NCBI RefSeq assembly: GCF_018336915.1
Contig: NZ_CP064927.1
Location: 150,001 to 182,000, forward strand
Reading direction: 5' to 3'
Length of the DNA: 32,000 bases
Source of the DNA: Acaryochloris marina S15
Lineage (GTDB): Bacteria; Cyanobacteriota; Cyanobacteriia; Thermosynechococcales; Thermosynechococcaceae
Shown one piece after another: positions 13,008-14,999 of the stretch (within the stretch, counting starts at the first letter, position 1; each line of letters begins with the position of its first letter). The translations under genes were made by a program, and so were the position numbers. Below the pieces are notes generated by a model. The model saw only the letters and a list, made by a program, of their open reading frames with translations, ran no database searches and was not told the origin of the DNA.

Positions 13008-14297
13008 ATGAAGCGTACACATTCTTCTCAGCCAGAAAAATTTCCATCTCAACCGATACTACAGTCAAAATCACCCGACTTACCTCAACCAGCAGCATCA
13101 GTACCTCCCACTATTCAAGCTAAATCAAATGAAGAGGGTTTAGCTGAATGGAAAGTACAGCAGGAGAAATGGGCACGATTTGGAACACCCTGGATGGACA
13201 AGGTTCCCGATCCTTCTGGAGAGATGGCACAGCCTTGGATTCAACGGAAGCTAACCCTTGGACAACCAGGAGATAAGTATGAGCAGGAGGCGGACTGGGT
13301 TGCATCTCAAGTAGTTCAGCAAATCAATGCCCCTTCTTTTTCTCAATTCAATCAAGGGCAATCAGTGCAGCGAGAGAACGAATTGGTAGGGGAGATGCAA
13401 GCGAAAGGTTTTCGTGCTGCCATCCAGCGTCGTCAAGCAATGACAGATGAAGAAGCATCAGCAGATTTAGAGTCTGCAATCAATAGTGCGAGAGGCAGTG
13501 GACAGTCATTGGATGCAGGGTTGCAACGGTCAATGGGTCAGGCGATGGGTACAGATTTTAGTGGGGTGCGAGTGCATACGGATTCCCAGTCAGATCAGTT
13601 AAATCAATCGATTCAGGCGAGGGCATTTACGACGGGACAGGATCTGTTTTTTCGTCAGGGGGCATATCAGCCAGGGAATCGAGGAGGACAAGAGCTGATT
13701 GCTCATGAGTTGACCCATGTAGTGCAGCAAAATGGTTATGGGGTTCAACTCATGAGGCAGAATAATATATTGCACAATAATGGGATATCTGAACTTAAGC
13801 ATCAAGGTATACAAAGGGAAGAAGAAAAGAAAGAAGAAGACCTAACAAAAGAAGAAGAGCAAGAATGGCTACAGGCGAAGTTACAGATATCTCATAGTGC
13901 TGCAACTACACATCAAGGGCCTCAAATCCAACGTCAGCATGAACCTACTATCCAAAGAGCGTGGACAGGGCGAAGACAGCTATCAGGCCTTGGTTTTTTA
14001 GGTAAACCTTGGGTAGTTAGGAAAAGTGGCAACCTTATCAATATGCGCCTATTCCATGAACATATTTTTTTCGAAGATGGTGGTGATCCTTCAGATTATG
14101 GGCACATGGGTAAATCTGGCTTAGGAACTGATCAAGCTCACGGTCAAGATGAATATAGTAAAGTCCGTAAAGGCTTAGATGATGCAAAGATGCGACAAGC
14201 TGTAGCAAAGATGGGCAATCCTGGTGAATATGGCTTATTTTCTAATAATTGCCAAGACTATGTTCAGGGTGTTTTAAAGCACTATGACAGCTTATAG
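13008..14297 (+). CDS. DUF4157 (HExxH) domain protein with a C-terminal papain-like (LRAT/PPPDE-type His...Cys) module; polymorphic-toxin-like
   Basis: RBS aggggga upstream of the ATG. Family hallmarks are IQRKLTLGQPGDKYEQEADWVASQV, then GSGQSLDAGLQRSMGQAMGTDFSGVRVHTDSQSDQLNQSIQARAFTTGQDLFF and ELIAHELTHVVQQ (HExxH at 13704-13718). An EEKKEED-rich linker follows. The C-terminal 110 aa has LFHEHIFFEDGG and YGLFSNNCQDYVQGV (Cys codon 14250-14252). Confidence 0.8.
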   Translation: MKRTHSSQPEKFPSQPILQSKSPDLPQPAASVPPTIQAKSNEEGLAEWKVQQEKWARFGTPWMDKVPDPSGEMAQPWIQRKLTLGQPGDKYEQEADWVASQVVQQINAPSFSQFNQGQSVQRENELVGEMQAKGFRAAIQRRQAMTDEEASADLESAINSARGSGQSLDAGLQRSMGQAMGTDFSGVRVHTDSQSDQLNQSIQARAFTTGQDLFFRQGAYQPGNRGGQELIAHELTHVVQQNGYGVQLMRQNNILHNNGISELKHQGIQREEEKKEEDLTKEEEQEWLQAKLQISHSAATTHQGPQIQRQHEPTIQRAWTGRRQLSGLGFLGKPWVVRKSGNLINMRLFHEHIFFEDGGDPSDYGHMGKSGLGTDQAHGQDEYSKVRKGLDDAKMRQAVAKMGNPGEYGLFSNNCQDYVQGVLKHYDSL

Positions 14298-14351
14298 GAA
14301 CAGAGTAAGGTATTTCTTGATTAAAAATCTGAACCTTTATATAGAAGTAAT

Positions 14352-14999
14352 GTGGCAACTCTAACAACGGAAGAATTAGAACAGTGGATAAGTCATTACT
14401 TTGAGAATCCACAACCAAATAAGACTCCGATAGCTATAGGAATTTTTATTAGAGAAGGATATTTCACTAATGATTCTATAGTAGAGACTGTCATTACATT
14501 TTTGTCGTTTATCTTTCGTGATCAACCAGATAAAATTTCAATTTGGCTGAATTCAATACAGGATCTATCTAATCAAGAGATGATAGCGATAGGAAAAGCA
14601 CTTTGGTTGTCAAATACAAAAGAAGCAAAAAACTATCTAGATGCCATTCTAAAAAAGAAAAATAAAGAAATTCAAGAGTCATTAACGTTGTTATTACGCG
14701 AGGTCCCTCCCAAAATAGAGGAAATTCCTATTTCTTCGCCAAGTATATTGGATATGTTGTGGGCTGCTTTTGCCGCAACAGGCGAAGAAAAATATGTTAC
14801 TCGACTGATGTCTGTTCTACCGTACATTAATGCGGAGGACGAGCCACATTTATTTAGCATTGGTAATGCAGCTAGATGGTCACTAAGATCAAATATGGAT
14901 AAGTATGAAAAGATTAAATCTATTTGTGTCAATCAATTAGAGCAACAATCTCAAGAGATATCCATAATCCTTAAAGAGATTTTAGCTGAAACTGATTAG
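14352..14999 (+). CDS. Hypothetical protein, candidate cognate immunity protein
   Basis: 215-aa ORF (GTG start in the track, uncertain) lying 54 bp downstream of the toxin-like gene on the same strand. The sequence is visibly AT-rich. No motif is recognised apart from an LDMLWAAFAATGEEKYVTRLM helix-repeat-like segment. Confidence 0.5.
   Translation: MATLTTEELEQWISHYFENPQPNKTPIAIGIFIREGYFTNDSIVETVITFLSFIFRDQPDKISIWLNSIQDLSNQEMIAIGKALWLSNTKEAKNYLDAILKKKNKEIQESLTLLLREVPPKIEEIPISSPSILDMLWAAFAATGEEKYVTRLMSVLPYINAEDEPHLFSIGNAARWSLRSNMDKYEKIKSICVNQLEQQSQEISIILKEILAETD

Follow-up and report, generated by a model that had tools for sequence, protein, structure and literature searches.

Introduction

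Among the main sources of new enzymatic activities and protein-delivery tools are the polymorphic toxins. Among the toxins of extracellular contractile injection systems (eCISs), the DUF4157 domain (PF13699, now named eCIS_core) is described as the most specific marker (PMC8213781). According to the AlgoCIS study, the cargos Cgo1 and Cgo2 are composed of a disordered N-terminus that is needed for loading, a DUF4157 domain that is dispensable, as well as a domain at the C-terminus (CTD) (bioRxiv 10.64898/2026.05.27.728243). Cyanobacteria may hold many genes for such eCIS-associated toxins (EATs), with 18 predicted EATs in Moorena. This work describes a DUF4157-headed gene and the open reading frame (ORF) directly downstream of it, ORF B, in a stretch of 32,000 nucleotides (nt) of Acaryochloris marina S15 (assembly GCF_018336915.1, contig NZ_CP064927.1, positions 150,001-182,000, forward strand). 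The window denotes this whole stretch, and all coordinates below are positions in it.

The closest described relatives of the CTD encoded here are found among permuted papain-like enzymes. The families C97, C92 and LRAT are permuted members of the NlpC/P60 cluster (PMC10318531). Among the toxins of the permuted NlpC/P60 type, only Tox-Act1 has been characterized directly so far: it is a phospholipase of the Salmonella type VI secretion system (T6SS) in which His43 and Cys151 are essential, and it is paired with an immunity protein, Imm-Act1, that has two transmembrane (TM) helices (PMC12994826). TseH showed a related activity in the same study and is also close to Tox-Act1, and DUF4105 and DUF6695 are neighbors of Tox-Act1 (PMC12994826).

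We consider it likely that the gene pair of A. marina is a toxin-immunity cassette whose effector domain is a permuted papain-like Cys-His hydrolase. Below, we compare the CTD with the PPPDE, LRAT and Tox-Act1 families, follow it through other genomes and metagenomes together with its downstream partners, and weigh other explanations of the pair.

Architecture of the DUF4157-headed protein

The candidate toxin gene encodes 429 amino acids (aa) in the three-part layout of EATs such as Cgo1 and Cgo2: an N-terminal region that is disordered as judged from composition only, a DUF4157 domain and a variable CTD (Table 1). This domain architecture is demonstrated, and full-length homologues occur in a JGI sample (L002), an Acaryochloris metagenome-assembled genome (MAG; L006), Phormidium sp. 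FACHB-1136 (L009) and a cyanobacterial MAG (L011). The original prediction, made from the letters of the sequence, had proposed a Q/P-rich N-terminus, a DUF4157 core ending in an HExxH motif, a charged linker and a distinct C-terminal domain; each of these was recovered where it had been placed, the last now being delimited at 118 aa.

In the architecture of eCIS cargo, the N-terminal region probably has its counterpart in the disordered 'loading' region. The N-terminal region contains the KLTLGQPGDKYEQEADWVA motif, which starts at aa 81, and the LTLGQPGDKYEQEADWVA motif (aa 81-99, nt 13248-13304), which is conserved in homologues. HELTHVVQQ begins at aa 233 in the DUF4157 domain, its HExxH being HELTH at aa 233-237 (nt 13704-13718). 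Two motifs mark the CTD, namely FHEHIFFEDGG at aa 349 and YGLFSNNCQDYV at aa 408; the catalytic candidates are His350 (nt 14055-14057) and Cys415 (nt 14250-14252). Besides eCIS_core, Pfam returned a single sub-threshold LRAT match for the whole protein, and the NCBIfam scan gave zero matches.

The tripeptide [ILVM]QR occurs seven times (aa 78, 120, 139, 172, 268, 307 and 315) against 0.49 expected, a count reached in 0 of 5000 shuffles. Many DUF4157-headed homologues show an excess of the motif as well, and the last copy lies directly before the CTD (TIQRAWTGRRQL). The HExxH domain could process the protein at these motifs.

In its base composition, the pair stands out. The GC content at third codon positions is 0.27-0.34 across most of it and 0.45 in the DUF4157 core, compared to 0.54 in the neighboring PBP1A gene. 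Neither gene is a chance ORF: for each, homologues that retain conserved motifs occur in other genomes and metagenomes.

Sequence relationships of the C-terminal domain

A word-indexed search yielded only three close relatives of the CTD. The profile of these three was used as query in an exhaustive HMMER search of 1.84 billion representative proteins, which retrieved 316 clusters with E ≤ 1e-3, of which 67 have E ≤ 1e-10. Pfam matches were counted in 146 of the relatives. The conservation of the catalytic residues is demonstrated: His350, Gly365 and Cys415 are invariant or near-invariant, followed by Asp357, Tyr383, Asp392, Arg396, Asn414 and Gln416, so that His350 and Cys415 are the polar residues of the first rank.

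LRAT is matched by 47 of the 146 relatives (best E 1.1e-5), in all cases below the gathering score and along the Cys helix only, and PPPDE (Peptidase_C97) by 29 (best E 2.6e-8). One relative, an RHS C-terminal fragment (P0113), exceeds the PPPDE gathering score (36.5 against 29.2 bits) over profile positions 20-118, which include both catalytic motifs. Because the clade of P0113 aligns with that of the window protein over 108 columns (hhalign 99.94%, E 2.4e-37) and P0113 itself lies above the gathering score, the chain from the window CTD through this clade to PF05903 is sound, and family membership is demonstrated at the level of profiles. A 72-sequence CTD profile searched against all PDB sequences gave ten matches, all of them PLAAT/HRASLS/LRAT chains or a PPPDE-domain protein, which are individually marginal (E 0.03-0.16) and limited to the Cys helix. 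Pairwise, hhalign gave 70.5% for PLAAT3 (sequence validated against 4FA0 and 4DOT) and 10.5% for DeSI (sequence validated against 3EBQ).

The CTD shares with PPPDE/DeSI (PF05903, MEROPS C97; 2WP7, 3EBQ) the predicted permuted papain fold in which His comes before Cys, and a 'Y-x-L-x-x-NNC' motif that opens the catalytic helix (NNCQDYV in the CTD, NCNTF in DeSI). PPPDE enzymes are eukaryotic deSUMOylases and deubiquitinases, whereas the CTD is the C-terminal cargo of predicted polymorphic toxins with candidate immunity genes. With LRAT/PLAAT (PF04970; 4DOT, 4FA0, 2KYT) it shares the His motif H-x-x-I-[YF]-[VF]-x-D-G (HWAIYVGDG in PLAAT3, HEHIFFEDG in the CTD) and the Cys motif NC-[EQ]-[HD]-[FY]-V (NCEHFV and NNCQDYV, respectively). 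At the place of the second His of the Cys-His-His triad of PLAAT, the window protein and its close relatives have His366 and most of the family has Phe or Tyr. In contrast to PLAAT, a C-terminal membrane anchor is absent. We conclude from these comparisons that the CTD is a predicted permuted papain-like Cys-His hydrolase near PPPDE and LRAT, in line with the likeness to these two families that had been proposed at first sight.

Structural model of the C-terminal domain

AlphaFold2 modeled the CTD from the 72-sequence alignment with a predicted local distance difference test score (pLDDT) of 86.8 and a predicted template modeling score (pTM) of 0.79; an earlier model from a 3-sequence alignment (pLDDT 48.9) was discarded. 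The model comprises four strands followed by two helices, with His350 on the second strand (model residues 39-45) and Cys415 opening the last helix (105-118). The permuted order, a catalytic His on a strand and a later Cys at the start of a helix, is thus present, and both residues are conserved. We take this order of strands and helices to be that of PPPDE and PLAAT/LRAT, element by element, a comparison made by eye and not by a computed superposition.

Foldseek against BFVD gave a marginal top match to a picorna-like polyprotein (E 8e-3, TM-score 0.53). This match would be compatible with the H-box/NC 2A proteins of the LRAT family. The structural diversity of papain-like enzymes often defeats automated comparison (PMC10318531).

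Distribution of the domain and the polymorphic-toxin pattern

Among the best 150 HMMER matches, the CTD ends within 30 residues of the C-terminus in 133. The heads in front of it vary: eCIS_core was found in 33 of the 146 scanned relatives, RHS_repeat in 18, RHS in 12 and the teneurin-type YD-shell (TEN_YD-shell) in nine. In RHS proteins, the CTD starts right behind the DPxGL motif. The reverse exchange is seen in a Prochloron MAG (DYNF01000083.1, L008:1374-6351), in which two DUF4157 genes of 835 and 357 aa stand in tandem with a 338-aa ORF between them; their N-termini and DUF4157 domains are 55% identical and their C-termini are unrelated. This locus is a small polymorphic-toxin array of DUF4157 proteins with swapped C-termini. 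Since the CTD occurs on eCIS_core, RHS and YD-shell heads, and since one type of DUF4157 head carries exchanged CTDs, the polymorphic-toxin pattern proposed for the window protein holds for its family. The family is spread over Cyanobacteria, Chloroflexota, Bacteroidota, Actinomycetota and many metagenomes, and the scan of viral contigs gave zero relatives.

Tox-Act1 would be the best functional analogue of the CTD. There, too, heads of the RHS, PAAR or filamentous-haemagglutinin type end in a permuted Cys-His toxin domain. Membership of the CTD in the Tox-Act1 family was considered and rejected: WP_182959113.1 (Aeromonas plasmid), the one clade member tested, aligns over 12 columns with an hhalign value of 4.7%. 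None of the 146 relatives matches DUF4105, TseH or DUF6695, and DUF4157 proteins are absent from the tables of PMC12994826. On these three grounds, the CTD family appears to be distinct from Tox-Act1 and functionally analogous to it.

No Pfam or NCBIfam model catches the window CTD. In the literature searched, no paper tied PPPDE to polymorphic toxins, LRAT appeared beside polymorphic toxins in two places only, the Tox-Act1 work and the papain-like survey, and none of the activities, papain-like or other, that the searched passages of the EAT papers name is of the CTD type. By its sequence, the CTD would form a family of its own beyond current Pfam and NCBIfam models, branching next to PPPDE and LRAT/PLAAT, which bears out the earlier suspicion that the toxin family may be undescribed.

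Partners in the RHS branch and the possible substrate

A metagenome scan with the profile of the RHS clade gave 80 loci (L014-L093). Two families of downstream ORFs begin at the toxin stop codon or just ahead of it. The partner at 36 loci overlaps the toxin stop codon and is a protein of 64-87 aa with a pair of TM helices and a GD(K/R)xPPDAxT tail that is conserved. The other family, lipoprotein-like, accounts for 19 loci, of which 15 encode a lipoprotein-like or membrane-anchored partner of 166-199 aa and four a lipoprotein-like partner of about 300 aa. None resembles ORF B. The occurrence of several unrelated, tightly coupled partners for one toxin domain is the pattern of a polymorphic toxin system. 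As a candidate membrane immunity family, the protein with two TM helices is possibly analogous to Imm-Act1 as published, which has the same number of them; the window ORF B differs from Imm-Act1 in being soluble.

Most of these partners are membrane or periplasmic proteins, which points to a substrate in the envelope and leads us to rank a lipid or acyl hydrolase first and an isopeptidase or amidase second. A lipid or acyl substrate specifically is a tentative assignment, somewhat short of an even chance. The second reading, a PPPDE-type isopeptidase or amidase that acts, for example, on peptidoglycan or its precursors or on ubiquitin-like conjugates of a eukaryotic target and is still part of a toxin-immunity pair, is in our view unlikely, and the evidence divides between the two. 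The strongest curated-family link, both by best E-value and by the match of P0113 across the whole core, is to Peptidase_C97, and the His-to-Cys spacing of the CTD (65 residues) is closer to that of DeSI-1 (70) than to those of PLAAT3 (90) or Tox-Act1 (about 103-108); lipoprotein-like partners would also fit a periplasmic amidase. LRAT matches nevertheless outnumber PPPDE matches, PLAAT3 exceeds DeSI in the pairwise comparison, and the commonest partner in the RHS clade, like that of the phospholipase Tox-Act1, has two TM helices. A conserved immunity gene, moreover, speaks against a target found in eukaryotes only.

The downstream gene ORF B

ORF B had been put forward as a co-oriented, markedly AT-rich candidate immunity gene 54 bp downstream of the toxin, and its position, orientation and composition (GC 0.344 against 0.432 for the whole window) agree with this. 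Its GTG start is backed by aligned homologues that begin at the same position. The spacer contains neither a terminator-like nor a plus-strand promoter-like site and is therefore consistent with co-transcription. ORF B has no significant match in Pfam, NCBIfam, PADLOC or the PDB sequences, is predicted to be soluble with no hydrophobic or TM segment, and belongs to a family of only eight clusters among 5.8 billion proteins.

Genomes were scanned for CTD loci with an alignment of 14 closer sequences. Counting the window itself, the gene directly 3' of the CTD belongs to the ORF B family in about seven independent lineages. The other loci are on an ENA metagenome contig (L001, where at 2x coverage both genes show frameshifts) and in four samples from JGI (L002-L005), the Acaryochloris MAG (L006), Phormidium sp. 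FACHB-1136 (L009, with the close relatives L094-L096), the cyanobacterial MAG (L011) and an Actinomycetota MAG in which the toxin is degraded (L012). The conserved pairing of the two genes is thereby demonstrated, and the expected co-occurrence of toxin and candidate immunity gene is borne out. A distant homologue with 28% identity (L099:1871-2626) has an N-terminal signal peptide and no toxin gene nearby; because of this signal peptide, the ORF B family may also work outside the cytoplasm.

The candidate immunity gene sets the pair apart from many EATs, which have none. That many validated eCIS toxins come without immunity genes (PMC8213781) would suit another role for ORF B: as a chaperone or adaptor, it would hold the cargo in an unfolded state or direct its loading, with the toxin aimed at eukaryotes and harmless to the producer. 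Adaptors often have the shape of helical repeats, to which the soluble ORF B also bears a weak resemblance (alphaRep, E 0.047). This role is nonetheless improbable. ORF B goes with the CTD and not with the DUF4157 head; where such heads are joined to other CTDs (L008), other genes follow downstream, and the same CTD on RHS heads is followed by different partners that overlap the toxin stop codon. Furthermore, ORF B is retained beside a degraded toxin (L012) and in orphan copies, as is typical of immunity genes.

Genomic context

The toxin gene and ORF B are flanked as listed in Table 1.

Table 1. Coordinates of the toxin gene, its parts, ORF B and the flanking elements in the window
Feature	Position	Strand	Evidence and remarks
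Candidate toxin gene, 429 aa, ATG start	13008..14297	+	ORF list; Pfam eCIS_core; full-length homologues
N-terminal region, aa 1-165	13008..13502	+	Rich in Q, A, S, P and E (Q 12.7%); without signal peptide
DUF4157/eCIS_core domain, aa 168-243	13509..13736	+	Pfam PF13699, E 8.3e-33, 112.8 bits against a cut-off of 22
Charged linker, aa 244-311	13737..13940	+	EEKKEED at aa 272; two of the seven [ILVM]QR motifs
C-terminal domain, aa 312-429, 118 aa	13941..14294	+	Permuted papain-like (PPPDE/LRAT-like) Cys-His hydrolase, predicted
54-nt spacer from toxin stop to ORF B	14298..14351	+	AT-rich, GC 0.26
ORF B, 215 aa, GTG start, candidate immunity protein	14352..14999	+	ORF list; homologues downstream of the CTD
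Copy 1 of the ~590-bp repeated module, upstream flank of toxin gene	12307-12895	+	Copy 2 at 19412-20000
Short ORF, possible insertion sequence (IS) remnant, downstream flank	15074..15316	+	Weak Pfam match to a transposase N-terminus (DUF4277), E 0.095
Mutator-family (Pfam Transposase_mut) transposase, upstream of toxin gene	10543..11781		Pfam
UPF0236 fragment, upstream of toxin gene	11787..12386	-	Pfam

The original prediction had described the pair as wedged between a repeated module and an IS remnant. The repeat holds: its two copies are 89-100% identical and in direct orientation, and copy 1 ends 112 nt before the toxin ATG. The IS remnant is weak, as its only indication is the DUF4277 match. 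The copies are the 3' parts of paralogous ORFs (12059..12895 and 19356..20000), neither of which has a Pfam match, and they enclose a 7.1-kb segment with the toxin pair, the IS remnant, a K/A/P-rich 298-aa ORF and the PBP1A gene. The 298-aa ORF (15980-16876, minus strand) has a long, internally repeated Lys/Ala/Pro/Ser-rich middle with 76-nt repeats at 16373-16679, and no Pfam match.

IS genes and fragments are dense at 7250-8370, 10543-12386 and 20124-21038 (IS1-like, rve fragments, Mutator-family, UPF0236 and ISL3), which is consistent with a plastic genomic region. Further downstream, a 119-nt perfect direct repeat occurs at 25250-25368 and 27884-28002 (spacing 2.6 kb), and a 200-nt repeat of 80% identity lies on either side (24334-24533 and 24960-25159) of a RidA-like gene (24541..24936); both may be small mobile or regulatory elements. 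Within 28589-32000, there is a caspase (Peptidase_C14)-nSTAND1 ORF that ends at 30622, preceded just upstream by a CyanoTRADDas_TM protein (26793..27740). WD40 repeats in 126-nt tandem units (30916-32000) are encoded in another frame, open from 30603 to the window end, and the two frames represent either a frameshifted or a split caspase-STAND-WD40 gene.

Discussion

Judged from sequence comparisons, the cassette would be a polymorphic toxin and immunity pair of a known kind, with a toxin-domain family and an immunity family that have no Pfam or NCBIfam models. The toxicity, substrate, neutralization and delivery that we infer for it can be put as follows. The 429-aa protein would be a cargo of contractile injection, with a disordered N-terminus, a zincin-like DUF4157 domain (HExxH) and a variable C-terminal effector. 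This effector would be a circularly permuted papain-fold thiol hydrolase with His ahead of Cys, in which His350, on the second strand, activates Cys415, the residue that opens the last helix, for the attack on an ester or amide (acyl) bond by way of a thioester intermediate. A membrane or envelope acyl linkage would be the likeliest substrate, with a phospholipase A or acyl-hydrolase action comparable to that of PLAAT enzymes and Tox-Act1; the main alternative activity would be that of an isopeptidase or amidase. ORF B, translated from the same transcript in the cytoplasm of the producer, would bind and block the CTD.

Several observations weigh against this interpretation. On the side of the enzyme, the window protein itself reaches the Pfam LRAT model only below threshold (aa 393-421 on profile positions 86-113, E 0.0094, 16.7 bits against a gathering score of 24.3) and has no match to the Pfam PPPDE/Peptidase_C97 model (gathering score 29.2 bits). 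Against single LRAT/PLAAT3 and PPPDE/DeSI sequences, hhalign aligns the Cys helix only, and where the window protein and its close relatives have His366 as a candidate for the third catalytic residue, most of the family has Phe or Tyr. The Foldseek comparison that the original prediction had suggested as a check did not support a papain-like fold: the confident CTD model found no papain-like, LRAT or PPPDE structure in the PDB, including 2WP7 and 3EBQ (best E 1.2), and the fold assignment therefore rests on sequence profiles and topology. On the side of the pairing, two testable CTD loci have no ORF B downstream: in Aggregatilineales (L007) a membrane-anchored 300-aa ORF follows the CTD, and in Microscillaceae (L010) there is no ORF of at least 40 aa for about 700 bp. 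Conversely, three ORF B homologues have no adjacent toxin (L097-L099); such orphan copies, like the one associated with a toxin remnant, are typical of immunity genes. On the side of delivery, the scan of 29 window ORFs (-13/+17 kb) found no member of an eCIS, T6SS or type VII secretion system (T7SS) family, as had been remarked for the window before, nor were eCIS, T6SS or T7SS genes found within 6-8 kb in nine related loci. Of the 40 ORFs that reach 100 aa, the scanned set covers 27, and two shorter ones in addition; the other 13 have 101-197 aa and the majority of them overlap a longer scanned ORF.

Within the 32 kb of the window, a location of the pair inside an eCIS operon was rejected; sheath, tube, baseplate and AAA ATPase families were found neither among the 29 scanned ORFs nor in the flanks of nine related loci. 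Compared to described EATs, the window gene and its relatives differ in having no visible eCIS operon nearby. An eCIS-type route is suggested by the presence of DUF4157, which is its sole ground, and delivery by a distant eCIS locus is plausible. An unsecreted pair, acting as an intracellular toxin-antitoxin or defense-type module in a conflict-gene neighborhood, would agree with the lack of secretion machinery near the pair in the window and in related loci and with the caspase-nSTAND1 and CyanoTRADDas_TM genes of the window, but is very unlikely given that the CTD family is fused to the export-associated heads RHS, YD-shell and DUF4157, that PADLOC gave no match, that the conflict genes are 12 kb away and that the N-terminal architecture fits loaded eCIS cargo.

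The toxin-immunity reading can be extended to its fullest form, namely an undescribed CTD toxin family of at least 316 clusters with at least four unrelated immunity families, in which ORF B is new, soluble and specific to the DUF4157 branch and the [ILVM]QR motifs are self-cleavage sites of DUF4157. Taken as a whole, this extension is doubtful.

The general picture of such systems is unchanged, and a specialist would find the cassette unsurprising. What the family may add to the permuted NlpC/P60-type toxins is a PPPDE/LRAT-like branch with a wide distribution among environmental bacteria. The CTD offers a small predicted catalytic domain with two obvious mutation targets, and ORF B a new soluble candidate immunity family for structural work. 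The set of DUF4157 proteins with repeated hQR motifs provides a means to probe the role of DUF4157; self-cleavage at [ILVM]QR, if true, would give this long-unexplained eCIS marker a role in effector release.

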